Shown: piece after piece, positions 1 through 30,354 of the stretch
How the letters are laid out: each line of letters starts with the position of its first letter
Numbering within the stretch: the stretch's first letter is position 1
From: a virus
Taxonomy: Duplodnaviria > Heunggongvirae > Uroviricota > Caudoviricetes
IMG/VR virus record: IMGVR_UViG_2690316109_000010
Strand: one strand, 5' to 3'
Length of the DNA: 36,079 nt
Made by a program: the position numbers and the translations under genes
Notes under the pieces: model-generated
Told to the model about the DNA's origin: nothing
Database searches by the model: none
Seen by the model: the letters and a program-made list of their open reading frames with translations, nothing else

Positions 1-1637
1 TTCTGCAGACGTTTCTCTGCATTGTCATAGGCTGATTTTACTGCCTTTGGCGTTGCCGCCAGCGTTTCAGACGTGCTGTTGGTCGCGCTGCTTAGCTGGA
101 TTATCCCTTTCTGTGCTGTCGTTGCATCCTGTGCGGTGTATTTCCCGTTAGCCAGGTCATACGCGGCCTTAACGGCTTTTGGCGTTGCCGCCAGTGACTC
201 GGAAGTGCTGTTGGTCGCACTGCTGAGCTGTACTATCCCCTTTTTCGTCGTGCTCGCATCCTCAAGCGCCACGGCGGATGCAATATCCTCTGCCCGTTTT
301 GCCGCTGTCTCAGCGCGCGTTGCCGCGGATTCCGCCGTACTTTTGCTCTGAGCTGCCGCCGTCGCACTGCCAGCTGCCTCTGTCGCCTTCGTGGATGCCG
401 TCGTGGCGCTGCCTTTCGCTGCTGATGCCTGTCTGCTCGCCTCATCTTTTGAAGCAGACGCAGATGATGCCGATGACGCCGCCGAACTGGCGGACGATGC
501 AGCAGCCGTTTTTGAGGATTCTGCACGGGTTTCCGACGCTTTCGCGTTCGTTTCGGATGTCTTCGCTGCGGAAGCTGACCTCGCTGCTGCGCTGGCCTGC
601 TCAGTGGCTTCGCCAGCCTTCGTTGTGGCTGTTGAAGCGGATGATGCGGCGCTTTCTGCCGATTTTCCGGCGGCGGTGGCACTGGCTGAGGCCTGCCCGG
701 CACTTGTTGACGCGGCGCTGGCAGACGACGCAGCCGCTGTTTTTGAGCCTGCCGCAGCTGAGGCACTCTGTCCCGCTGCCGTTTCAGAAGACCTGGCGTT
801 CGTCTCGGACGTTTTGGCCGCCTTCGCAGAATTTGCTGTCGCCGTTGCCGAGGAAGCTGCGCTACTGGCGCTCGAGGATGCGTTCGTTTCTGATGATTTT
901 GCCGCCTCTTTTGAAGCCGCCGCATCCCGGGCTGAGGTGGCAGCTTCTGACGCTTTCGTGGTCGCGGTGGATGCAGAAGTGGCTGCTGATTGTTGTGACG
1001 CTGCAGCATTCGTTTCTGACGTTTTCGCGGCACTGGCACTGGTAGCTGCCGCGCTTTTTGAGGACTCTGCAGCAGCAGCACTTTTCGATGCTTCAGTGGC
1101 CTTTGTTGATGCCGTTCCTGCGCTGGAAGATGCTGACTGAGCCGACGACGCGGCCTGTCCGGCTGACGTGCTGGCTGCGCGTGCTGAGCCTGCAGCATCA
1201 GTCGCACGGGTTGCCGCCTCACTGGCAGATGTGCTGGCATCACTGGCTGACTTCTTTGCGGCTGCCGTGTTCTGTGCCACCACGGACGCGTTACGCGCCA
1301 CCTCTTCCACCATCAGCTCAAAACGGCGCAGTGCCTCCGGACGGGCATCATCCTCCGTCATGGCACCGAGAAAATCATTCAGCGTACCGGGTCGGGAATC
1401 TTCATACACTGTGATGGTCCCGGCATGTGACGGCGGGAATCCTTCCACCAACAGAATAACGCTGTACTGACCGTACTCAACGTCCATACTGTAACGCCCG
1501 GCTTCATCCGGATTTTCTGAGGCCAGCGTGTTCACCACCACCGTGGTACTGTTACGTTTTGCTTTCAGCTGGATTGTGCAGTTCTGTACCGGTTTTCCTG
1601 TGCCGTCTTTCAGTACACCTGAAATCTTTACTGCCAT
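1..1637 (-). CDS. stf: Side tail fiber protein Stf, N-terminal part; gene runs off the left edge of the window
   Basis: Reverse-complement translation from the ATG at 1637 gives MAVKISGVLKDGTGKPVQNCTIQLKAKRNSTTVVVNT..., matching the lambda Stf N-terminus as I recall it, followed by long Ser/Ala/Thr-rich repeats (AAKTSETNA-type). This frame is not in the ORF track because it has no stop inside the window. Confidence 0.8.
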   Translation of the reverse strand, partial: MAVKISGVLKDGTGKPVQNCTIQLKAKRNSTTVVVNTLASENPDEAGRYSMDVEYGQYSVILLVEGFPPSHAGTITVYEDSRPGTLNDFLGAMTEDDARPEALRRFELMVEEVARNASVVAQNTAAAKKSASDASTSASEAATRATDAAGSARAASTSAGQAASSAQSASSSAGTASTKATEASKSAAAAESSKSAAATSASAAKTSETNAAASQQSAATSASTATTKASEAATSARDAAASKEAAKSSETNASSSASSAASSATATANSAKAAKTSETNARSSETAAGQSASAAAGSKTAAASSASAASTSAGQASASATAAGKSAESAASSASTATTKAGEATEQASAAARSASAAKTSETNAKASETRAESSKTAAASSASSAASSASSASASKDEASRQASAAKGSATTASTKATEAAGSATAAAQSKSTAESAATRAETAAKRAEDIASAVALEDASTTKKGIVQLSSATNSTSESLAATPKAVKAAYDLANGKYTAQDATTAQKGIIQLSSATNSTSETLAATPKAVKSAYDNAEKRLQ

Positions 1638-1646
1638 ATTCACCCC

Positions 1647-1675
1647 ACAAAAAAGCCCGCCTGAACCGGCGGGCT
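1647..1675 (-). terminator. Rho-independent terminator downstream of lom
   Basis: Inverted repeat agcccgcc/ggcgggct (1654-1675) with a 6-nt loop; on the minus strand it is followed by a U-tract (plus-strand A run 1647-1653). Confidence 0.6.
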
Positions 1676-1701
1676 GTCATAACACTGTGTTACCTGGCTA
1701 A

Positions 1702-2301
1702 TCAGAATTTATAACCGACACCCACGATGAACCCGTCAGTGCGCCAGTCACCACTGCCGGAGCCTTCATAAGCGACATCAACGGCCACGGATTCGGTCGG
1801 GTTAAACTGCACGCCAGCTCCCCACGCCAGAGACGTGTTGCTGTGGCGACCGTCATCACTTCCGGTCAGCACATCGTGCGTTTTCCCCTTGTTGTCAGTT
1901 ACGCGGATATAATCCCCGGAGAAAGTCGACACACGGCTGTAAGCCATACCCGCCATCGCATACGCGCTGAACCATTCATTCACGCGCACAGACGGCCCCG
2001 CCATCACGCTGAACCAGCGATTACGCACGGAATCCTCATGCCAGCGGGTATCGCTGTAATGCGTTTTTTGCTCATCTTCAGCGTTGGCATAACTGAATGA
2101 CGTAATCAGCCCCAGCGTGTCCGTAAACTCATAACGGTATTTCACGTTAATCCCGTTCAGATTATCGCTGCCGGGAGCGTTCGTACGGGCATGAAGATAC
2201 CCTGCGCTCAGTGTGGCCTGCTGCTCAGACGCCCATGCAGGCGCACCGGATACGGCCAGACAGATGGCTGCGGACAAAATGGCTGCACAAACTTTACGCA
2301 T
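1702..2301 (-). CDS. lom: Lom/Ail/PagC-family outer membrane beta-barrel protein
   Basis: 199 aa with signal peptide MRKVCAAILSAAICLAVSGAPAWA and C-terminus ...DVAYEGSGSGDWRTDGFIVGVGYKF as in lambda Lom; sits between J and stf as in lambda; ATG at 2301 preceded by GAGAGG. Confidence 0.85.
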   Translation of the reverse strand: MRKVCAAILSAAICLAVSGAPAWASEQQATLSAGYLHARTNAPGSDNLNGINVKYRYEFTDTLGLITSFSYANAEDEQKTHYSDTRWHEDSVRNRWFSVMAGPSVRVNEWFSAYAMAGMAYSRVSTFSGDYIRVTDNKGKTHDVLTGSDDGRHSNTSLAWGAGVQFNPTESVAVDVAYEGSGSGDWRTDGFIVGVGYKF

Positions 2302-2325
2302 AATTACCTCTCGCTTTTCTGCAAT

Positions 2326-2349
2326 AAAAAAGGCGCCATTTCTGGCGCC
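2326..2349 (-). terminator. Rho-independent terminator between J and lom
   Basis: Hairpin ggcgcca-tttct-tggcgcc (2332-2349) followed on the minus strand by a U-tract (plus A run 2325-2331). Confidence 0.6.
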
Positions 2350-2368
2350 CGTATATGGGTTATAAAAT

Positions 2369-5300
2369 TCAGCTGATACTGATGCCTGCGGTGGCTTTCT
2401 TCATCACCACAACCAGCAAATCGCTGATACTTGCTGTGGGATACCAGTCATTTACCAGCCATGCTGACACCGAAAACTCCAGCGTCATGTGGCCGTGACC
2501 AGCAGGCATATCAATAACACCACTGTAAATCAGCGTATTATCCAGCGCGGTACGGTTATAAATTTCAGCACCATTTTTCTTCACTATCAGGCGGCATGAG
2601 GAGTAAATATCAGTATGCTCTCTCTCATGTTTAGCACCGCTGAATGCCACCGCCGGAATAACAATCTGCCGGTCAAACGGCTGATCGTCATAAATCCTGA
2701 CGGTAATGGTCCCTGATGGCCACCGCTCCGGTGCCCGGGAGTCCCGCGGGAAAGCCTTACCCACTGTTTTGACAATATCGCCTTCAATCTGGTTGGCTGA
2801 CAGTTTCCCTTTAATCTGACAGTTCTCATTTATCGTAACGTTGTTGAGCGTCCCGGAGTTCGCATTCACACTGCCACTGATATCTGCATTTTTAGCGGTC
2901 AGCTTTCCGTCCGGTGTCAGGGAAAATGCAGGAGGATTACCGCCGCTGGTAATGGTGGGAGCCGTCAGATATTTCAGGAACACTTCATTCATGAATATCT
3001 GATCACCCTGACCAACAAACATCGGTTTTGTGTTGCCATTTGCAGGATTAATCATCGCAATCCTGTCTGCCGCCAGCAGCACCTGACTCTGCATGCCGTC
3101 GGGGGTGTTCTCAATACCGGCACCGATACCCGCGATATAAAGGCGTCCGTCCTGCATCTGCTGCAGCTTCACAGCCCACATGCTGTTCAGATTATTATTT
3201 GTATCAACCTGAACCTTCTGTATCTGCTGGATCGCTGCACTCTGGTCTTCCAGTTTCTTATTGACGGTCTGTGTGATTTCATTGCTGACATCCGTAATGG
3301 ACGTCCTGATTTCAGCCAGGTCAGGCGCAAGCTGACCGTTATCAATCTGCGTCCACAGCTCCTGAGCCAGATGGGTTTTCCCTATCTCGCCTTTGAAAAA
3401 ATCCAGATAGCCGGATGCGTCATCACTCGGCTGACCAACAGCCTCCACGAATGCCGATTTGCCAACGGTGTTCACACTGCGAACGTAAAAATAATAATTA
3501 TGGCCCGGCCTGATATTGATACTGGCGGCTATCCAGTACAGCGCCGTGCCAAGATAGCGTGCTGTGGTTTCAACCTGCCTGATATCCGCAATCCGCTTTT
3601 CCGAGAACCAGAACTCAAACTGTACCGTCGGATCATAAACCGCAAGATGCGGCGTGGCGGTTATCTGAAAATAGCCCGGCGTCAGCTCAATCCGCGACGG
3701 CGCTGCCGGTGCGGCAATCCGGAACGATACCGACGCCGGATCGCCCTGCTGCCCCCACGCATTTACTGCCCGGACTGTCAGCCTGTAGTTCCCCAGAGCC
3801 AGTTGTGTGAAGCGGTAAGTGGTTTCCGTCGTCCGGGCCGTGCTGACCAGCCGCTCACTGCCGTCATCCGCTGCCACGGTCAGGCGAAGCATGAAACTCA
3901 CGCCCTTCACCACCTTCGGCGTGTCCCAGCGGGCCAGTACCTGATACTCCCCGCTGTCTGCGGTGACTTCGGCAGTCAGGTGCTGCACTGCTGGCGGCGT
4001 GACACCATTCACCGTGCCGCTCTGGTCGCCGTCAAAGTGCGCCCCGTTATCCACGATGGCTTCTTTTTCCGGTACATGCTGCACGGCGGTGATGGCATAC
4101 GTGCCGTCGTCGTTCTCACGGATACTCACGCAGCGGAACAGGCGCTGGCGCAGCGTCGGCAGCTTCAGCCCCCATACGCTGTATCCGGCAACGCCGTCAG
4201 GAACACGGCTCACTTTTACCTTCACGCCGTCGGTGACGGACTGGACCTCCACGCTGACCGGATTGCCACTTCCGTCAACCAGGCTTATCAGCGTGGTACC
4301 GGAGGATGGCAGCGTGATTTCACGGTCGAGCGTCAGCGTCCGGGTCTGGCTGTTCACCGCCAGCACGCGCCCGCCGGTGCTGATCCCCGCATAGTCATCA
4401 TCGCAGATTTCAATGACATCGCCCGGCACATGGCGAAGCCCTTCCGCACCCACGCTGAAGTCCACGGTCTGCGTTTCCAGTAGTTCCGTTTTAATCAGCC
4501 ACAGCCCGGCGCGGTGCGCCTGCCCCCGGCTGGTACAGCCAAAGGCATCCATCTTCGTGACGTTACGACCGTAACGGAGAATGGCCTGCGTATCTTCAAC
4601 AAGCTCTGTCGCCGTCTCCCAGCCGTTATCCGGGTCAATCCAGTTCACCTCAACGGCATTATGACGGTCCTTCAGGGCACTGAAGCTGTAGCGGAACGGC
4701 GCGCCATCATCCGGCATCACCACATTACTGCGGTTATAGGTCCACACCTTATCCGACGGTCGGTCCTGCACGAACGTCAGCGTCTGCCCGTTCCATACCG
4801 GCATACAGCGCATCGCCGAGCAGAAATCACTGAGAACATCCCACGCCTTGCGCTGTGTGGTCAGGTAGGCATTACAGGTGATGCGCGGCTCCGTGCCACC
4901 AAAGCCATCCGGCACCGACTGGTCGCAATTCTGGCCGATGACATACAGCGCCCATTTGTCCACATCCGCCGCACCGAGACGCTTCCCCATGCCGTAGCGC
5001 GGATGGGTCAGCATATCCCACAGACACCAGGCCATGTTGTTGCTGTATGCTGGCTTAAACGTTCCGTCCCAGATACCGCTGTATTGCCGCGTCTGCGGGT
5101 TATAGTTCGACGGCACCTGCAGAATGCGCCCGCGAAGATGATAATTACGGCTCACCTGCTGGCTGCCGAACTGTTCCGAGTCCACCTGCACGCCGACCAG
5201 TGCCGTGTTCGGGTAGCACTGTTTCACATCGATGATTTCGGTGTATGACGACCAGAGCGTTTTGTTCTGCAGCTGGTCTGTGGTGCTGTCCGGCGTCATT

Positions 5301-5848
5301 CTGCGCATCCGGATATTAAACGGGCGCGGCGGCAGGTTATCCACCACCACCGAGGCCAGATACTGCGAGGTGGTTTTGCCCTTAATGGTGATGTCTTTTT
5401 CCGTCACCCAGCCACCATTACGCTGTATCTGAACCAGCAGGCGAACTTCCGACGGATTCCGGTCCCCCTTTGAGGTGGTTTCCACCAGTGCCTGCACACC
5501 GAAGGTAAAGCGCAGTCGGTCGATGTTTGCCGACGTGATGGCGCGGGTGATCGGCGTGTCGTATTTCACTTCCGTACCCAACACCGTCTCGGAGCCGGAG
5601 GATTCAAATCCCTCCGGCGGAGTCTGCTCCTGCTCACCAGCCCGGAACACCACCGTGACACCGGCGATGTTGGTATTCCCATCACTGTCCAGCACCGGCG
5701 TACTGTTCAGCAGCACGCTTTTTAATCCATCCATCGGACCTTCAATCGGCCCTTCACTGATGGCATCAATCACACTCAGCAACTGCGTGGACTTCAGGTT
5801 GTCCTTCGCTTCGCGCGGGGTATGCCCCTTACTGCTTCCTTTACCCAT
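2369..5848 (-). CDS. J: Tail tip/host specificity protein J (central tail fiber)
   Basis: 1159 aa; N-terminus [38 protein letters not shown]... and most of the length match lambda J as I recall it; the last ~250 aa diverge. Confidence 0.95.
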
Positions 5849-5908: not shown

Positions 5909-6550
5909 TCAGCGACCAATCACCACAACCTGACCACCATCCCCTTCGTCTGCCGTGCTGATCTCCTGAGAAACCACGCGTGACCCCACGCGCATTTCAC
6001 CGTACAGAACAGGCAGAACATTGCCCTGGGCAACCATGTTATCCAGTGAAGAAAAATAGGTGTTCTGTTTGCCGTTATCCGTTGTCTGTGTGCGGGGGGT
6101 TTTGGGTTTAGGGGCCAGCATCTGTGCAACACCGCCAAGCGTCATACTGGCACCGAGAGAAAACAGCAGATTACTCGCCATAATTCCTACCCCCGGCATC
6201 CATATAGCAACCGCCATAACAGCCGCCCCCAGCACAGCCTGAAACACACCGCCACTTTTGGCTCCCGCCAGACGCGGCACGATATGGATCACAGCACCAT
6301 TTGCCAGCGGTTCATTAAGACGGGCTGATAATTCCGTTTCACCTGTATCACGCCCGGCAATGCGTACCTGATACCAGCCGTCGCTCAGCTTCTGACGAAA
6401 CGCCGGGATCTGCATGGCCAGCGCCCGGATGGCTTCGGCCCCCGTTTTCACACGCAGATCGATGCGGCGGCCAAATCGTTGTAAATCCCCGTAAAGGCAG
6501 ATGCGCGCCATGCCCGGTGACGCCAGAGGGAGTGTGTGCGTCGCTGCCAT
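5909..6550 (-). CDS. I: Tail assembly protein I
   Basis: 213 aa; MAATHTLPLASPGMARICLYGDLQRFGRRIDLRVKTGAEAIRALA... and C-terminus ...GEMRVGSRVVSQEISTADEGDGGQVVVIGR match lambda I. Confidence 0.9.
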   Translation of the reverse strand: MAATHTLPLASPGMARICLYGDLQRFGRRIDLRVKTGAEAIRALAMQIPAFRQKLSDGWYQVRIAGRDTGETELSARLNEPLANGAVIHIVPRLAGAKSGGVFQAVLGAAVMAVAIWMPGVGIMASNLLFSLGASMTLGGVAQMLAPKPKTPRTQTTDNGKQNTYFSSLDNMVAQGNVLPVLYGEMRVGSRVVSQEISTADEGDGGQVVVIGR

Positions 6551-7191
6551 TTGTCGGTATACCTCTCTCGTTTGCTCAGTTGTTCAGGAATATGGTGCAG
6601 CAGCTCGCCGTCACCACAGTAAATGGCGGCATGATTCGGCACCGATGAACCAAAGCAGCACAGCAGCACATCGCCCGGTTGTGCTGATGACAACGGCACC
6701 TGATACAGCCCTGTGGCCTCCAGATTATCCAGATAGAGATTCTGACCGTGACGCCACCAGTCATCCCCGCGATGAAAATCCGGCATCTCAATTCCCGCCA
6801 GATGGTAAGCGTCCCGGAACAGCGTGTAACAGTCCGTCACCCCGTGCTCAAAGCGCCGCCCGGTGAGATGCGGCACACAGCGGAATTTATGAATCGCCCC
6901 CCGGCAGACCAGCCACCACGGCAAATCACTCTGCACCTGCAGCCGCCGGTCGGCCTCACTCAGCCAGGGCAGACCACCGGGGTGGCTGTGGACCAGCGCC
7001 ACAATCTCTCCCTGCATTTCTGCACTCAGCCAGTCCTCCGGCGACATCCGGAAATACTCCTCCGGCTCACCGGATATATTCACGCAGGGAAAATATCTTT
7101 CCCCCTCCGGTGTTCTCACCACGAAGCCGCACGACTCCGCTGGCGCACATCGCCGGGCGTGCGCCAGAATCGCTGATTCTGTCTCTGTCAT
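6448..7191 (-). CDS. K: Tail assembly protein K (NlpC/P60-MPN type)
   Basis: Lambda K-like sequence (ESAILAHARRCAPAESCGFVV..., HSHPGG motif). Start set at the ATG at 7191; the track start at 7200 is a GTG. The 3' end overlaps the start of I by about 100 nt. Confidence 0.85.
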   Translation of the reverse strand: MTETESAILAHARRCAPAESCGFVVRTPEGERYFPCVNISGEPEEYFRMSPEDWLSAEMQGEIVALVHSHPGGLPWLSEADRRLQVQSDLPWWLVCRGAIHKFRCVPHLTGRRFEHGVTDCYTLFRDAYHLAGIEMPDFHRGDDWWRHGQNLYLDNLEATGLYQVPLSSAQPGDVLLCCFGSSVPNHAAIYCGDGELLHHIPEQLSKRERYTDKWQRRTHSLWRHRAWRASAFTGIYNDLAAASICV

Positions 7192-7196
7192 GGGAT

Positions 7197-7895
7197 TCAC
7201 TGCGAAAGTTTGTTAATGGAAAGGAAGCCGCCAAAGTTGCCGACGTTATTGCGAAACTTACAGCCGCTCAGGCATTTGCTGCATTTATCCTTCGTGATAT
7301 CGGACGTCGGCTGATCATATTCATCCGCGACCGCCGGACCGTGATAACCGCACTCATCACCGCGATAGGTCCAGGTGCAGGTGTTGGCCAGCATGATACG
7401 TCCCGGAAAAACGGCACCGTCCGTTTCCGTCGGCGTGGACAGTACAAAAGAGGCACTCACCGCGCTCAGTTCACTGCACTGCTCGATGCGCCAGCGGCTG
7501 ATCACCTCCTGCTCCGGATCGGCGTCACTGTTTCCGTTGACGAAGTTCACCGCATCCAGAAAACGGGCGTAAACCTTACGCCTGACCACCGTTCCGCCGA
7601 CCAGACTCTGCAGGTCTTCCGCCATCCCGGTGACCATGCCGTGCAGGTTAGAGACCGTCAGTGTCGGACGGGCAGCACTGCCCTTACCGTTCAGTTCAAA
7701 TCCCGTCCCCTGAATGGGGTATGCCTGATACTGCCGCCCCTGCCAGGTGACCGGCTCACCTTTTTCGTTCTGCTCATTACAGAAAAAATAACGTTCACCA
7801 CCGACCTCTGTCAGATCGATTTCCCAGAGCACCACCTGGGCTGACTGAGTAAGGCGTGTCGTCTCATGATGTGTTTCCTGTGGAATATCCTGCAT
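7197..7895 (-). CDS. L: Minor tail protein L
   Basis: 232 aa; MQDIPQETHHETTRLTQSAQVVLWEIDLTEVGGERYFFCNEQNEKGEPVTWQGRQYQ... matches lambda L, including the C-terminal Cys cluster. Confidence 0.9.
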   Translation of the reverse strand: MQDIPQETHHETTRLTQSAQVVLWEIDLTEVGGERYFFCNEQNEKGEPVTWQGRQYQAYPIQGTGFELNGKGSAARPTLTVSNLHGMVTGMAEDLQSLVGGTVVRRKVYARFLDAVNFVNGNSDADPEQEVISRWRIEQCSELSAVSASFVLSTPTETDGAVFPGRIMLANTCTWTYRGDECGYHGPAVADEYDQPTSDITKDKCSKCLSGCKFRNNVGNFGGFLSINKLSQ

Positions 7896-7904
7896 CAGGG
7901 CCTC

Positions 7905-8234
7905 CTATGCCACGACCTGTTCAAAATCTGCCGTTATGGTTACCCACAGCGCCCCCACGCTTGCCGACCATTTACGACAAACCACCCTGATCGGCTTCCA
8001 GTCATAAGGTGGCGTCCACTGAAATGCGCGGACGCCACCGTGCCGTTCCAGAAAGGCTTTCAAAGATGGGTGTTCACATTTACGAACACGTATCGTCACG
8101 CTGTAAGTCGACAACTGGTTATTCAGTCCCGCCGCACGACGCTGTTCATAACCATCGCCCAGCTTCACTGTCACCACTTTCGGCTCTGATACCACATTCA
8201 TATCCGGGCGCACTTTCCAGTGAAACGTCTCCAT
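7905..8234 (-). CDS. M: Minor tail protein M
   Basis: 109 aa, lambda M-like (FHWKVRPDMNV...GDGYEQRRAAGLN...WTPPYDW), in the expected position between H and L. Confidence 0.8.
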   Translation of the reverse strand: METFHWKVRPDMNVVSEPKVVTVKLGDGYEQRRAAGLNNQLSTYSVTIRVRKCEHPSLKAFLERHGGVRAFQWTPPYDWKPIRVVCRKWSASVGALWVTITADFEQVVA

Positions 8235-11200
8235 TACCGATATGCTCCACTTAACCGACCACCATCACGGGCCTGCTGTTGCATAAAGTCCGCTGCCGCT
8301 TTTTTCCCAAGGTCATAAACCACCTTCAGGGCAGCCGGACCTATCTGCCCGTTCGTGCCATCGTTATTGATCTCGATGTTGTACTGCGGGGCAAACATCG
8401 CCATACCTGAACCACCAATATCCGCCACAACCCCCAGCTTACCATCAGCACCACGACGCAGTGGCAGAATGGCTTCAGGTCCAGCTTCCCCCATCACACC
8501 CGCGCCTTTTGCAAAAGCAAAAAACGTCGGACGGTTAACCACCGTGCCACTGTAGCGACTCAAATCAGCCGACTGATAAACACCGCCATCAGCATTGGCT
8601 ACAAAATCAAAAGGCAGCGCGGAAGCAATACCTTTTACCGCTTTCATTAAAGCTATCTGAGCCATGATTCTGGACATATCTGACAGCACAGAAGAGGTGA
8701 AGGATTTGAAATTGAGTTTGCCTGTAGTACAGAATGTCGCCAGCCAGTCACTCATGCTACTGAACGCAGACGTGAACAACTGTTCCACTGTCCCGGCTGT
8801 GTTATCCGCTTTCTCAGTGACATTCTGGAGTGCACGCAGGACTCCGTTTTTCCAGTCACCCTGAGCAATTTCAAGCTGTTGCCAATAACGGCGATTCTCA
8901 TTCAGTTGTCGGTTCAGGCTCTCCGTCAGCGCCTGCTCGGCCTTTCTGTAGTCATCCGTGTTATATGTTCCTTTCTGCTCACTATCCCGCCTCAACTGCT
9001 CCAGCTGTTGCTGGTATTTCTGGCGAAGACTCAGTTGTACCTGATATCGCTGCCGCTGCTGATCACCCATACCCACCGTGGCGATATCCAGGTCATGTTG
9101 CTGGCGCTGAGCGCGCTCTTCTTCAGCCAGTTGACTGGTCAGCTGAATTGTTTTTTTCTTCAGATCGTTGAGTGCCGTCTGTTTCTGAAGCTCCTGCTGT
9201 TTTACATCCAGCAGCGTCAGTGCCTGAATCAGTTCATCTTTACGGGCCAGCACACTCTTTTCATCTGCCGTCAGTTTTTTCCCGTCCAGATCGCTGATGC
9301 GCTGCTGCAGAGCCAGAAGCTGTTTATGCGCTTCTGTCATCCTGTCAGTGGCAATGCCTGCTGACTGTCTTGCAGCAGCAATCTGTCCTTCCACCTGTGC
9401 CTGTTGCTGACTGTACTGCAGCAATAACCGGGTGGCCTCATCATTACGGGTTTCGCGTGTTTTTTTCTTACCGGATGCCAGGACTTTCTCGTAACGTTCA
9501 TTTTCACGTTGTATCGCCGCATCCCTGACAGCCTGATCGGCGTACTGCATGGCATTAATACGCGCAATTTCACGCTGATGTCGTGCTGCTTCCGTTTCAT
9601 TCATCCGGTTCAGTGCAGCATTTTCAGCATTACGGCGTTTCTGTTGCTCCTGATAATTCCGCTCTGCCTGCTCTTTTGCATCCTGCAAATCCTTCTGGCG
9701 TTTTTTCTCCTGAAGCTCGTTAAGACGCTGCTGATCGTACTCAACCTGAGAAGATGATGCCGTCCAAGGGAGTCTTTTCGCCCGCGACACTTTCTCCTGT
9801 AAAGCGGAAATCTGTTCATCCAGCGAGTCTTCACGACCAATATTCATGGCCGCATCCCAGAAACGACTCCATAAATCAGACAGATACTTCAGCGTACTGC
9901 CCAGCGCATTGAGGTTATTATCAATATCCGCAGTACGCCGACCGGTTTCCTCTGCCAGTGCAGACATGGCTATCCGTGCCGCATCACTGGACCGCCCCTG
10001 TTCCCCAAGGACGCGTATCTGCTCAAGCTGAGTGGCAGTAAGAAAATGCAGCTCATTGTCCAGAGCCTTCGCGGCATTTACAGGATCATCCTTCAGCCGC
10101 TTAAACTGATTTATGGTATCGCTGACCGACTGGCCAACCGATCGCTCCATCTGTGCGGCAGCTCTCGCCACCATACCGATATCGTTTCCACGAAATGCAC
10201 CACTCCCCACCACCTGAGCCAGCGCACCGGCTGCAGCATGTTGCGTGATACCATTCCCGGAAATAGCACGACTGAGCGTCCACAGCTGCCCGGCAGTGAC
10301 TCCGGCATAATGCCCCGTCAGCGACAGCTGGCGGTTAAATTCTTCCCCCTCCTTCTGACCGTCATACCAGGCTTTACCCAGACCATAGACAGCCGCGGCA
10401 ATACCGCCAATAACCCCGCCAAGCATCATGCCTTTCGGTGACATCAATGTGTCTATCCATCCGGCACGGTTAGCCAGCGTTATTCCGGATCCCCTCAGCG
10501 CACCTAAATTGCCGCGGGCCAGTTCACCTATCAGAACGCCTATCTCCTGACGGGCCGCTGCACTTTTCAGACCCAGCGAATGCGTTGCTTTTCCTGCCTG
10601 CTCCATTTTGCGGATATACACTTCTGCAGCACTGCTTACCCCCAGCTGGGCAGCCTTAGCACGAAGCAACTCAGAAGAAGAAAGATTCTGGCGGGTTGCC
10701 TGCTCTTTAAGCTGACGGATAAACGCCACTTTCTGTCGGGTAGCCTCTTCCTCAGCCTGTGTAAGAACACGGGTTTTCGCCGTAACCTCAGAAATCAGCG
10801 CCAGATAATCCTGCTGACCAATCCCGCCACTGTTTCTGGCCTGTCGGATCTGCTGCTGAATACGCTGTAATTCCTGCAGCCCCGCACTGGCCTGTTTCAC
10901 ACTGTCAATCTGACGATAAAACGCGGCAGCCGCTTTATCCTGAGCCTCCGCCAGAGCCATGGCCTGCGCCTGTTCCTCGCGCATTTTCTGGCTCAGTGCC
11001 TCCATACGCTGGCGGGTTTGCTCCACCTCGCGGGCCATGCGTTCATGAGCCTGTGCGCTCTTCTCCACCGTCTGCGCATGGACGGATGCGGCTGTTGCAG
11101 CCGAAGAAGCCGCCTGCATTGTCTGCCGGGCGGCCTGAGTCTGACGCTCCATAAAACGCTGCATACGGGCAGAAGACCGTTCTGCATCGCTGGCTGCACC

Positions 11201-11290
11201 ATTCAGAAGGTTTTTGATACGGGGAATTTCATTTTTAAACTCTGCCGCATCAATCCCCAAATCAATGACCAGGTTGGCTATCTGGTCCAT
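8234..11290 (-). CDS. H: Tail tape measure protein H
   Basis: About 1018 aa, coiled-coil-rich, with C-terminal ...NNDGTNGQIGPAALKVVYDLGKKAAADF...DGG as in lambda H. Start set at the ATG at 11290 (MDQIANLVIDL...) behind a GGAGGTG Shine-Dalgarno; the track start at 11320 is a TTG. Confidence 0.85.
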   Translation of the reverse strand: MDQIANLVIDLGIDAAEFKNEIPRIKNLLNGAASDAERSSARMQRFMERQTQAARQTMQAASSAATAASVHAQTVEKSAQAHERMAREVEQTRQRMEALSQKMREEQAQAMALAEAQDKAAAAFYRQIDSVKQASAGLQELQRIQQQIRQARNSGGIGQQDYLALISEVTAKTRVLTQAEEEATRQKVAFIRQLKEQATRQNLSSSELLRAKAAQLGVSSAAEVYIRKMEQAGKATHSLGLKSAAARQEIGVLIGELARGNLGALRGSGITLANRAGWIDTLMSPKGMMLGGVIGGIAAAVYGLGKAWYDGQKEGEEFNRQLSLTGHYAGVTAGQLWTLSRAISGNGITQHAAAGALAQVVGSGAFRGNDIGMVARAAAQMERSVGQSVSDTINQFKRLKDDPVNAAKALDNELHFLTATQLEQIRVLGEQGRSSDAARIAMSALAEETGRRTADIDNNLNALGSTLKYLSDLWSRFWDAAMNIGREDSLDEQISALQEKVSRAKRLPWTASSSQVEYDQQRLNELQEKKRQKDLQDAKEQAERNYQEQQKRRNAENAALNRMNETEAARHQREIARINAMQYADQAVRDAAIQRENERYEKVLASGKKKTRETRNDEATRLLLQYSQQQAQVEGQIAAARQSAGIATDRMTEAHKQLLALQQRISDLDGKKLTADEKSVLARKDELIQALTLLDVKQQELQKQTALNDLKKKTIQLTSQLAEEERAQRQQHDLDIATVGMGDQQRQRYQVQLSLRQKYQQQLEQLRRDSEQKGTYNTDDYRKAEQALTESLNRQLNENRRYWQQLEIAQGDWKNGVLRALQNVTEKADNTAGTVEQLFTSAFSSMSDWLATFCTTGKLNFKSFTSSVLSDMSRIMAQIALMKAVKGIASALPFDFVANADGGVYQSADLSRYSGTVVNRPTFFAFAKGAGVMGEAGPEAILPLRRGADGKLGVVADIGGSGMAMFAPQYNIEINNDGTNGQIGPAALKVVYDLGKKAAADFMQQQARDGGRLSGAYR

Positions 11291-11591
11291 AACGCACACC
11301 TCCGGAAATACCTTCCCCAAGATGCATCAGTTCTTCGTCCGTTCGCTCCGGTATCCCGTTCTCTTCCGGTAAAAGGCTGAAATCAGCCACCGCAGCATCA
11401 CTGCTACCGGACACCATTCTCACGATCAATGCCTTCAGCGAGGCAAACTGCGCATCCATCCACACATCACTGAAGCTCTGCATCCGGAAATAATCGCCCC
11501 ATTCACCAAGCTCAGTGGCCGACATTTCCGACAGCATCCGCCGCCAGTCTGCCCGCCGGAACTCCCGGGCAAGCCGCATGACAAACTGCAT
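11262..11591 (-). CDS. T: T segment of the tail assembly chaperone G-T fusion (-1 frame relative to G)
   Basis: 109-aa ORF in the -1 frame overlapping the 3' end of G, in the position of lambda T; the frame stays open upstream into G. Expected to be made only as G-T by programmed frameshift. Confidence 0.6.
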   Translation of the reverse strand: MQFVMRLAREFRRADWRRMLSEMSATELGEWGDYFRMQSFSDVWMDAQFASLKALIVRMVSGSSDAAVADFSLLPEENGIPERTDEELMHLGEGISGGVRYGPDSQPGH

Positions 11592-23971: not shown

Positions 23972-24337
23972 TTTTCCTCACATATGTCATATAGTAAAGG
24001 ATTATATATACCGTTGTTTTGGACGCTCAAACAGCGAATCAGATCAAATAAAACGCACATTTGTTAACATTTACACAAAGTCTGCGTGGGATATTCTGAA
24101 AGAATATCCATAATGTGGAGAGAATCTATTGAAGTGCATGGTGCCGGGGGCCTCCCGGTGAATTCAGTACCAGCACCTGAATCCACGATTATCCCATATA
24201 CCTACTCGCTGATTGCCCCTCCGCACAGGGGGATTCACCATGCCAGTTTCTTTTAACAAACTCCCCGCAAACCAGAGAACAGTCAACCGCCTGAATTGTG
24301 AAGTATTTAAAAATTTCTCCCGCTAACTGATACCCGG

Positions 24338-26168: not shown

Positions 26169-26245
26169 TGGCGCGCTGTACTGGATTCGAACCAGTGACC
26201 GATTGCTTAGAAGGCAATTGCTCTGTCCGGCTGAGCTAACAACGC
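26169..26245 (-). tRNA. tRNA-Arg (anticodon UCU)
   Basis: The reverse complement folds as a cloverleaf: acceptor GCGTTGT/ACAGCGC, D arm GCTC...GAGC, anticodon stem ATTGC/GCAAT with loop CTTCTAA, T arm ACTGG-TTCGAAT-CCAGT, 3' CCA. Confidence 0.85.
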
Positions 26246-26349: not shown

Positions 26350-26425
26350 TGGTGGCCCTTGCTGGATTTGAACCAGCGACCTGGCGATTATGAGTCGCTC
26401 GCTCTCACCACTGAGCTAAAGGACC
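26350..26425 (-). tRNA. tRNA with CAU anticodon (ileX/ileZ-like tRNA-Ile2, or Met)
   Basis: The reverse complement GGTCCTTTAGCTCAGTGGTGAGAGC...CTCATAA...GCTGGTTCAAATCCAGCAAGGGCCACCA folds as a cloverleaf with anticodon loop CTCATAA; closely resembles E. coli ileX as I recall it. Confidence 0.8.
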
Positions 26426-29636: not shown

Positions 29637-29792
29637 TTACTCCTCAGGTTCGTAAGCTGTGAAGACAGCGACCTCCGTCTGGCCGGTTCGGATTCGTACC
29701 TCGCAGAGGTCTTTCCTCGTTACCAGTGCCGTCACTATGACGGTTAAACAGATGACGATCAGGGCGATTAACATCGCCTTTTGCTGCTTCAT
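29637..29792 (-). CDS. hok: Hok-family type I toxin (HokD/RelF-like)
   Basis: 51 aa, MKQQKAMLIALIVICLTVIVTALVTRKDLCEVRIRTGQTEVAVFTAYEPEE, a Hok-family membrane toxin; ATG at 29792 after AGGAG; the frame is open upstream to 29849 (mok-like leader). Confidence 0.85.
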   Translation of the reverse strand: MKQQKAMLIALIVICLTVIVTALVTRKDLCEVRIRTGQTEVAVFTAYEPEE

Positions 29793-30354
29793 AGCCTGCT
29801 TCTCCTTGCCTTTCGGCACGTAAGAGGCTAACCTACATGTGTCTAGCATGAAATTGGCCTCAGGTTAATGTTAAGCGTCTTGCCGGACGCGTAATGTTAA
29901 CTGGGGCTTTTCTCTATCTGCCTTTGGTGTTCATGCCTGAGGCAGATAGCCTCAAGCACCCGCAGCAATTCTACTTAACTCACGTCACCTCGCCAATATA
30001 AAATCAATCAGAAAGGCGATCCGTAAGAACAACAGCAAGGCAATAAATTGCCATTACAGCCGCAATAGCTAGCGCACATTTGAGAACCAGCACGACAACC
30101 TCCTGTATTGGACGTACACCAGTCCTGATGAATATGAGGCTGTCTCGTCAGTGATTCAATACAACTATTGGGTATAGTTTCTCTGATTTTTTCTGTGGAA
30201 ATGGGGCTCAACCACTAGTCACCACCAGCACTTCTTTTAATACGCAAAGTCCGACACAAGCTAACCTTCTAGTCCGCTTTGAGCGAGGAGCGGAAGTTTA
30301 TAGACATTTCTTGCACTGCATTGTCTAATCAATTAGGAGCTGGTAACGTGCCCT

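Follow-up and report, generated by a model that had tools for sequence, protein, structure and literature searches.

The analyzed window, i.e. the whole stretch of 36,079 nucleotides of the IMG/VR virus record IMGVR_UViG_2690316109_000010, contains the J gene of a lambdoid E. coli prophage that in all likelihood is a mosaic of at least four pieces, ends in a receptor-binding domain (RBD) of the same allele class as the gpJ variant 1A2 and would direct the phage to OmpC of non-K-12 type. The gene encodes the tail tip attachment or central tail fiber protein (2369..5848, minus strand) and is complete, with 1159 codons followed by a stop codon and no frameshift in the ORF list and translation. 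BLASTP against lambda J (1132 amino acids) returned a single alignment of residues 1-1158 with 964 of 1159 residues identical (83%) and 3% gaps, a collinear full-length match that places the protein among the lambda-type tip attachment proteins. Lambda-type J was defined by the order of six Pfam domains in one polypeptide of about 1130-1160 amino acids, and the window protein has all six in this sequence, each scoring above its curated cut-off (E-values 2e-31 to 1e-42): FNIII-A_GpJ (residues 86-207), Phage-tail_3 (330-498), Ig_J (610-714), Ig_J_second (716-818), Phage_Tail_Tip (872-1000) and Ig_GpJ_C (PF12421, residues 1029-1159, window positions 2372-2764 on the minus strand, E = 5.7e-37).

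The neighborhood likewise identifies the gene as J, as the ORF list exhibits the tail-tip operon order H-M-L-K-I-J-lom-stf entirely on the minus strand. J is preceded by H (tape measure, 8234-11320), M (7905-8234), L (7197-7895), K (6448-7200) and I (5909-6550), while lom (1702..2301), encoding an outer-membrane protein of the Ail/Lom family, is located directly downstream and is followed by the side tail fiber gene stf, of which the window contains only the part from about position 1637 down to position 1, where its edge truncates the gene. E. coli APEC E18005 carries a prophage of 99% identity whose annotation shows H-M-L-K-I-J-lom-stf-tfa, in agreement with the window. Between J and lom, a consensus scan detected a GC-rich hairpin with a T-run behind it (2331..2350, minus strand) that resembles a terminator; phages 434 and 21 have this sequence annotated as a terminator downstream of J, and it is conserved in the DNA alignment. 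The exact J sequence (100% nucleotide identity) is present as an annotated gpJ gene in at least ten complete E. coli genomes. A decayed J gene was ruled out by the intact ORF and the identical copies across many genomes; the gene is an intact tail-tip gene of a lambdoid E. coli prophage.

The original prediction had described the first ~900 residues of J as tracking lambda J and the last ~250 residues (883-1159, window positions 2369-3200) as divergent following a module exchange, and pairwise alignment to lambda J and to J proteins with known receptors, OmpC among them, had been proposed as a check. Comparison in bins of 30 residues bore out the lambda-like portion for residues 1-810 (785/810 identical, 97%), but the resemblance already ended at about residue 811, with only 28 of the 90 alignment columns identical for residues 811-900. 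Another 28 columns of this stretch were gaps, the window protein being longer there. Identity was 38/60 for residues 901-960, 30/30 for residues 961-990, 22/30 for residues 991-1020 and 60/140 for residues 1021-1159. The C-terminal divergence is thus present and the RBD is not conserved with lambda, but J diverges in two separate blocks (residues ~811-955 and ~1006-1159) with a conserved neck (residues ~956-1005) between them, and the region originally assigned contains the RBD together with this neck and half of the first block. At the nucleotide level, codons 1-805 are 95% identical to lambda and each of the two divergent blocks only about 50%, a contrast far beyond chance, and the GC content changes from 0.59 in codons 1-805 to 0.47-0.52 downstream.

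Judged by these identities, J is a mosaic assembled by recombination from at least four pieces (S1-S4), all on the minus strand. S1 (residues 1-805, 3434..5848) is the lambda-like body comprising the hub domains and two Ig/FNIII domains, with 95.2-95.9% nucleotide identity to lambda, 434, phage 21 and PhiR55_1, 76.7% to VT1-Sakai and 71.4% to Stx2a_2409. S2 (residues 806-955, 2984..3433) comprises the alpha-helical shaft together with the upper beta-prism of the central fiber, in an allele of the phage-21 type; domain names follow Ge & Wang 2024 (PMC11101478), who assign lambda residues 841-861 to the alpha-helical shaft. In nucleotide sequence, S2 matches PhiR55_1 at 96.7%, phage 21 at 95.8% and VT1-Sakai at 91.6%, compared to 52% for lambda and 434. 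For the segment comparisons, the J genes of phage 21 and PhiR55_1 were reconstructed from sequence alignments. This second exchanged module had been missed previously. Within S2, a stretch at residues ~837-867 (3248..3340) contains 28 residues that are absent from lambda and 434 J, apparent as gap columns 37-57 and 61-67 in a protein alignment that begins at residue 801, and the same gaps were seen again in columns 168-286 of the DNA alignment. These extra residues account for the length of 1159 compared to 1132 amino acids in lambda and would be expected to lengthen the helical shaft.

S3 (residues 956-1028, 2765..2983) is the conserved neck or lower beta-prism, where alleles recombine. In windows of 40 nucleotides, identity to lambda reached 92-97% at window positions 2951-2872, while phage 21 and PhiR55_1 fell to 70-80% there; by this profile, these positions are a small lambda/A8-like patch within the neck. 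Residues 976-1030 match the A8 gpJ chain in PDB entry 9wca without a single difference, and residues Q1011-I-K1013 as well as I1025 are of the A8/lambda type, not the 1A2/PhiR55_1 type. S4 (residues 1029-1159, 2372..2764) is the C-terminal Ig-like RBD of the 1A2/PhiR55_1/VT1-Sakai allele class. The last 160 residues of J matched A8 gpJ (9wca, E = 2.6e-58, residues 1-160 against 268-428) and lambda gpJ (8xcj, E = 6.8e-36) in phmmer comparisons with PDB sequences, and this homology over the whole domain predicts the Ig-like gpJ RBD fold of these structures.

The segment identities are discordant between phages, which argues for module exchange. The RBD is 95-97% identical in nucleotide sequence to PhiR55_1, VT1-Sakai and Stx2a_2409, while S1 is only 77% identical to VT1-Sakai and 71% to Stx2a_2409. 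Lambda, 434 and phage 21 exhibit the opposite pattern, with bodies 95% identical to S1 and RBDs of only 49-55% nucleotide identity. Finding this RBD on differing bodies and like bodies with other RBDs supports the exchange that had been predicted, although the RBD module comprises about 130-155 residues and not 250. RBDs are known targets of diversifying selection and the allele class contains microdiversity, with 1220 E. coli genome records having their best match at 90-95% nucleotide identity and another 1716 at 95-99%. Ordinary vertical divergence of the C-terminus under such selection, without any module exchange, is nevertheless extremely improbable, since the 40-nucleotide profile is block-wise, with identity to lambda of 95% giving way to about 50% over a span of tens of bases, returning to 92-97% and declining again, and since gradual divergence cannot yield segment identities that are discordant between phages. 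Gradual divergence of J was ruled out on these two grounds. The conserved neck (residues 956-1028) serves as the crossover site between J alleles, and the segment map places natural crossovers in the very neck at which engineers made their graft.

To assign RBDs to the 1A2/PhiR55_1/VT1-Sakai class, which many Stx prophages carry as well, amino acid identity of at least 90% was used, and the RBD of the window J was 99% identical to PhiR55_1, 97% to Stx2a_2409 and 91.3% to 1A2. The latter value (116 of 127 readable codons in a frameshift-tolerant alignment) is a lower bound, as the 1A2 DNA was obtained from noisy machine-read text (Supplement 1 of PMC11338833) in which four codons of the RBD cannot be read and several mismatches, including a stop codon, are clear reading errors; identity is thus known as 91% or more. 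Amino acid identity was 60% to phage 21, 57% to phi330 and A8, 41% to lambda (about 50% at the nucleotide level) and 39% to 434, which places the window J outside the lambda-type LamB-binding class.

In this class, a receptor has been published for the gpJ variant 1A2 only, a chimera in which residues 1-964 of lambda J are joined to the C-terminus of a natural E. coli gpJ (Brödel et al., Nature 2024, PMC11338833). Particles carrying 1A2 reached about 98% delivery into K-12 with OmpC of EDL933 (PMC11338833, Fig. 1b, Extended Data Fig. 8a and text), while almost no delivery was observed into wild-type MG1655 (LamB+, K-12 OmpC; 5% at MOI 50) or into ΔlamB ΔompC carrying K-12 OmpC (2% at MOI 39). 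The receptor of 1A2 is OmpC and not LamB, with the EDL933 protein and most natural variants accepted but not K-12 OmpC, and 1A2 and A8 together cover 21 of 23 natural OmpC variants (PMC11338833). As the RBD of the window J is at least 91% identical to that of 1A2 and 1A2 uses non-K-12 OmpC, OmpC of non-K-12 type is most likely the receptor here as well, in support of the prediction of a receptor different from that of lambda. The class-A PhiR phages have been recorded on E. coli C or ECOR13 and not on K-12, which fits the failure of 1A2 on K-12 OmpC. PhiR55_1 is a plaque-forming phage with a 99% identical RBD, and the allele is thus viable. Our literature search found no published outer-membrane receptor for PhiR55_1, VT1-Sakai or Stx2a_2409, and the SNIPE paper on the PhiR phages (PMC13190303) covers inner-membrane ManYZ dependence only. 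A receptor-prediction preprint from 2026 addresses GpJ of the Drexlerviridae type, not lambdoid RBDs.

Within the gpJ family, the receptor cannot be read off from sequence identity alone. LamB is used by lambda and phage 21, the RBDs of which are only about 40% identical to each other, while 434, A8 and phi330 use OmpC. The A8-type RBD has been solved in complex with OmpC (PDB 9wcb), and phi330, which carries an A8-type RBD, requires OmpC as demonstrated by knockout and complementation. A literature search found no paper describing the A8 gpJ structures (9wca/9wcb). Among the compared natural phages with a known receptor, the closest RBD to that of the window J belongs to phage 21 (60%), a native user of LamB, so that the divergent RBD could still bind LamB as another allele of the phage 21 kind. 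We consider this improbable, given that 1A2, with its closely similar RBD, barely delivers into LamB+ wild-type MG1655 and enters K-12 only if a non-K-12 OmpC is supplied (PMC11338833). Receptor choice in the gpJ family is labile, and a few substitutions could matter; phage 21 gains OmpC by a single mutation.

A handful of RBD residues, as well as the neck, distinguish the window allele from 1A2, and in lambda and phage 21, single substitutions are sufficient to change the receptor or to extend the receptor range. In addition, a side tail fiber gene is located downstream of J, and Stf chimeras were needed for efficient delivery of engineered particles to wild strains (PMC11338833). The RBD could accordingly use another outer-membrane protein, or OmpC together with a second determinant (LPS core or O-antigen via Stf), with OmpC not being the sole determinant. 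There is little probability to this reading, as the 1A2 experiments were isogenic in a K-12 background with only the ompC allele changed (PMC11338833) and the RBD is 97-99% identical to alleles of viable or recently active phages. With OmpC of non-K-12 variants as the preferred receptor, the trimeric RBD would dock its distal loops onto the trimeric porin instead of LamB, and binding would be relayed up the beta-prism and the helical shaft until the tail tip opens for DNA ejection; the transmission of this signal to the tail opening is proposed by analogy with cryo-EM work on lambda.

The window J and 1A2 share the RBD allele class but differ in the segments above it. The shaft (S2) of 1A2 is the short type of lambda, while that of the window J is of the phage-21 type and 28 residues longer, and at positions 1011-1013 of the neck, 1A2 has RVL where the window J has QIK. 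RBD substitutions between the two include I1052V, R1076K, K1090R, D1134N and S1157T, of which I1052V, K1090R and D1134N are likewise present in natural alleles; 1A2 is encoded by a recoded, synthetic gene, which was compared via its noisy machine-read supplement. The combination of a 1A2-class RBD (K1090/D1134/I1052) with an A8/lambda-type neck (QIK at 1011-1013) and a long phage-21-type shaft might constitute a functionally distinct host-range variant, either recognizing a subset of OmpC variants different from that of 1A2 or, via the longer shaft, altering the reach of the tip through O-antigen or capsule or the relay to the tail opening. We regard this as a rather doubtful but conceivable outcome; if true, the window J would be a host-range variant in its own right and not a synonym of 1A2.

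The natural relatives of J match it in different parts. PhiR55_1 (PV340571) J is 95.6% identical in nucleotide sequence over all 3480 nucleotides and differs in the neck by K982R, S993N, Q1011R, I1012V, K1013L and I1025L. The VT1-Sakai prophage (AP000400) and the long-tailed Stx2a phage Stx2a_2409 (LC727856) share the RBD at 95% nucleotide identity; J of the former is frameshifted with a body of only 77% nucleotide identity, while the latter has a body of 71% and a different N-terminus. Lambda gpJ (NC_001416; PDB 8xcj/8xck, LamB complex) belongs to the same family with the same domain order, gene neighborhood and, presumably, RBD fold, but is a LamB binder with a 41% identical RBD and a shaft that is 28 residues shorter and 52% identical in nucleotide sequence. 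Phage 21 J (OL657228) is 95-96% identical in nucleotide sequence over residues 1-955 including the 28 extra residues, whereas its RBD (60% amino acid, 55% nucleotide identity) natively uses LamB, and OmpC and OmpF by mutation. The A8-type RBD (PDB 9wca/9wcb) and phi330 (PV189401) have the OmpC receptor and, in A8, an identical neck (residues 976-1030), but their RBDs are only 57% identical with two indels and, unlike the 1A2 class, accept K-12 OmpC. The J of 434 has a 95% identical body at the nucleotide level, the short lambda-type shaft and a 39% identical RBD with different indels. The lambda h434 hybrid, in which an exchanged J C-terminus makes OmpC the receptor in place of LamB, is the textbook precedent, and retargeting of lambdoid phages from LamB to OmpC by such swaps has been known since these hybrids. 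The RBD allele of the window J has already been exploited as gpJ 1A2 in lambda particles retargeted for base editing in the gut and anti-STEC delivery.

Of 5426 complete E. coli genomes, 3394 contain the window-type RBD, while megablast with the lambda RBD detected a separate set of 98 genomes. The allele is the commonest gpJ tip in sequenced E. coli and already known, and the finding is real but ordinary. For this prophage, the host-range annotation would be "OmpC-type (1A2 class), probably not K-12 OmpC" and not the default LamB. It is the lambda RBD that is the rare allele among E. coli prophages and not the window J that is unusual, with the LamB-binding tip of lambda being the exception among natural E. 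coli prophages. All 98 matches to the lambda RBD were at least 99% identical at the nucleotide level, and the three records listed among these genomes are laboratory strains.

The window encodes an intact tail tip attachment protein (J, or gpJ) in which a lambda-like hub, a long shaft of the phage 21 type, a conserved neck and an Ig-like receptor-binding domain (RBD) of the class of the engineered gpJ chimera 1A2 are combined in a mosaic; this RBD type is abundant among E. coli genomes. The ORF (2369-5848, minus strand) is a single intact frame of 1159 codons, and a Pfam search recovered the complete architecture of lambda J, consisting of FNIII-A_GpJ (aa 86-207), Phage-tail_3 (aa 330-498), Ig_J (aa 610-714), Ig_J_second (aa 716-818), Phage_Tail_Tip (aa 872-1000) and Ig_GpJ_C, the "C-terminal receptor binding domain" (aa 1029-1159). 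The ORF list placed J in the canonical gene order H-M-L-K-I-J-lom-stf, and the window is part of a lambdoid prophage. Positions 1-24341 matched the prophage adjoining ydfJ in the E. coli APEC E18005 chromosome (91% of length covered, 99% identity), and ten or more complete E. coli genomes contained annotated gpJ genes 100% identical to the window J.

BLASTP aligned the window J with lambda J (NC_001416, 1132 aa) in one full-length alignment at 83% identity, which was spread very unevenly along the protein. Identical residues numbered 785/810 in aa 1-810, 28 of 90 columns in aa 811-900 (with 28 gap columns), 38/60 in aa 901-960, 30/30 in aa 961-990, 22/30 in aa 991-1020 and 60/140 in aa 1021-1159. 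The GC content was 0.59 across aa 1-805 and 0.47-0.52 downstream. Thus, the original prediction of a lambda-like body and a divergent C-terminal end held, but its boundary at residue ~900 was misplaced, and the last ~250 aa are not one divergent stretch; two divergent blocks, the first of which (aa 806-955) had been overlooked, flank a lambda-identical neck.

This first block represents a phage-21-type allele (52% nucleotide identity to lambda, 96% to phage 21), and its counterpart in the lambda central fibre is what Ge & Wang 2024 (PMC11101478) term the alpha-helical shaft and upper beta-prism. An insertion of 28 residues at aa ~837-867 (about 3248-3340), which the window J shares with phage 21, PhiR55_1 and VT1-Sakai and which is absent from lambda and 434, would lengthen the shaft.

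Alignment of the window J gene with six others, from lambda, 434, phage 21, PhiR55_1, the VT1-Sakai prophage and long-tailed Stx2a_2409, revealed segment-specific relationships. On the minus strand, nucleotide identities to the window were, in this order, 95.2, 95.4, 95.4, 95.9, 76.7 and 71.4% for the body (aa 1-805, 3434-5848), 52.0, 52.4, 95.8, 96.7, 91.6 and 66.2% for the shaft segment (aa 806-955, 2984-3433), and 52.4, 49.2, 55.0, 97.1, 95.3 and 95.0% for the RBD (aa 1033-1159, 2372-2752). J bodies that are 23-29% apart in DNA therefore bear one common RBD cassette, while bodies 95% identical to that of the window bear RBDs only ~50% identical to its own. Gradual divergence cannot yield such discordance and was ruled out in favor of module exchange within J, as originally proposed. 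A 40-nt sliding identity profile located transitions at about 3430, 2990-2950 and 2830-2750. Within the neck, a patch at 2951-2872 (aa ~966-992) was 92-97% identical to lambda/434, with PhiR55_1, VT1-Sakai and phage 21, the closest relatives elsewhere, at 70-80%, and aa 976-1030 equaled the A8 gpJ chain of PDB 9wca (A8 being a second engineered chimera) in protein sequence. This lambda/A8-like patch suggests an additional small recombination tract and thus a fine-grained J mosaic.

To classify lambdoid J tips, the last 160 aa of the window J were used as tblastn query against 50,697 phage records. Tips at least 89% identical were found in PhiR55_1, 2G7b, VT1-Sakai, PPompW prophages, many Stx2a phages and JLK-2012, followed by Lambda_ev isolates, mEp460_4F5 and BP-4795 (~62-65%), lambda, DE3 and HK629 (45.6%), and mEp460, Ayreon, ev099, cdtI and WGPS6 (43-45%). 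Brödel et al. (Nature 2024, PMC11338833) grafted natural E. coli gpJ C-termini onto lambda gpJ at residue 964 and characterised the chimeras A8 and 1A2, both of which use OmpC instead of LamB. A8 accepted OmpC from both K-12 and EDL933, while 1A2 accepted that of EDL933 as well as numerous natural variants, though not that of K-12; according to the source data, 1A2 delivery was 5% in wild-type MG1655 at MOI 50, 2% in ΔlamB ΔompC carrying K-12 OmpC and ~98% in K-12 carrying EDL933 OmpC (PMC11338833).

The A8 and 1A2 DNA in Supplement 1 of that study was machine-read with letters dropped, and was aligned to the window protein in a frameshift-tolerant manner. 1A2 matched the last 220 aa of the window J at 189/210 readable codons, compared to 72.8%, 56.9% and 60.1% for phage 21, lambda and 434, respectively. 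In the Pfam RBD, 116 of 127 readable codons were identical; the 11 mismatches include several plain reading errors, one of them a stop codon, as well as I1052V, K1090R and D1134N, natural polymorphisms also present in Stx2a_2409. Judged by this near-identity, the window RBD is a member of the 1A2 class, and OmpC of the non-K-12 type would be its most likely receptor, in agreement with the predicted departure from the receptor of lambda. Circumstantial support came from host records, which list E. coli C or ECOR13 for PhiR phages with a window-class tip, while PhiR phages recorded on K-12 bear other tips.

Phage 21, whose tip is 60% identical to that of the window, natively uses LamB and gained OmpC via one mutation (PMC11336670), indicating that receptor choice is labile in the J family and unreadable from moderate identity; the receptor argument consequently rests on 1A2, not on likeness to phage 21 or A8. 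Phage phi330, whose tip is of the A8 type, requires OmpC on K-12 as determined by Keio knockout and complementation (PMC12502783). "A8 gpJ 713" is deposited as PDB 9wca and 9wcb, and the three OmpC-variant chains in 9wcb show that an A8-OmpC complex has been solved. The last 160 aa of the window J matched the A8 chain (E = 2.6e-58) and lambda gpJ in its LamB complex (8xcj, E = 6.8e-36) over the entire domain, leaving the Ig-like fold beyond doubt.

By analogy with the 1A2 experiments, the trimeric RBD would bind trimeric OmpC rather than LamB. If the lambda cryo-EM data apply, its distal loops would enter the extracellular vestibule of the porin, the RBD bases would then splay apart, and the beta-prism followed by the helical shaft would pass the change upward until the tail tip opens.

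Among 5426 complete E. coli genomes, the window-type RBD (query 2369-2760) was present in 3394 with a median of two copies per genome, the phage 21 type in 1176 (coverage at least 80%) and the lambda type in 98 (each at least 99% identity); the three lambda-type records among the matches listed were laboratory strains. "Divergent from lambda" thus holds only in the sense that lambda is the unusual one. There is nothing new in the window J, as exchange of the J tip is classically known from lambda h434 and a 1A2-class tip is already employed in engineered lambda particles.

The J of VT1-Sakai (AP000400, Stx1 prophage, locus 1072-4544) carries the window RBD class and is annotated as two overlapping CDSs truncated by a frameshift, so this copy is probably non-functional. 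In the source data for Extended Data Fig. 2 of PMC11338833, the 1A2/A8 numbers of panel C (OmpC-EDL933) equal those of panel B (OmpC-MG1655), which looks like a spreadsheet copy error; the 1A2 result with EDL933 OmpC was therefore taken from Fig. 1b, Extended Data Fig. 8a and the main text of that study.

Minus-strand terminator-like GC hairpins with T-runs lie between J and lom (2331-2350, matching the terminator annotated 3' of J in phages 434 and 21) and between lom and stf (1654-1675). The side tail fibre gene stf, a second host-range determinant of this prophage, is represented by its N-terminal part (1-~1637, minus strand) because the window start cuts the gene; in the 99%-identical APEC E18005 prophage its product has 1176 aa, with tfaQ next. 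Further minus-strand elements were two prophage-borne tRNA genes, tRNA-Arg (anticodon tct, 26169-26245) and one with anticodon cat (26350-26425; Met according to ARAGORN, Ile in the annotation of related prophages), and, above their Rfam gathering scores, the sRNA STnc100 (24082-24272, 110 bits) and the sok antitoxin RNA (29787-29961, 118.7 bits), the latter fitting a hokD-type hok/sok locus of the kind present in Qin-like prophages.
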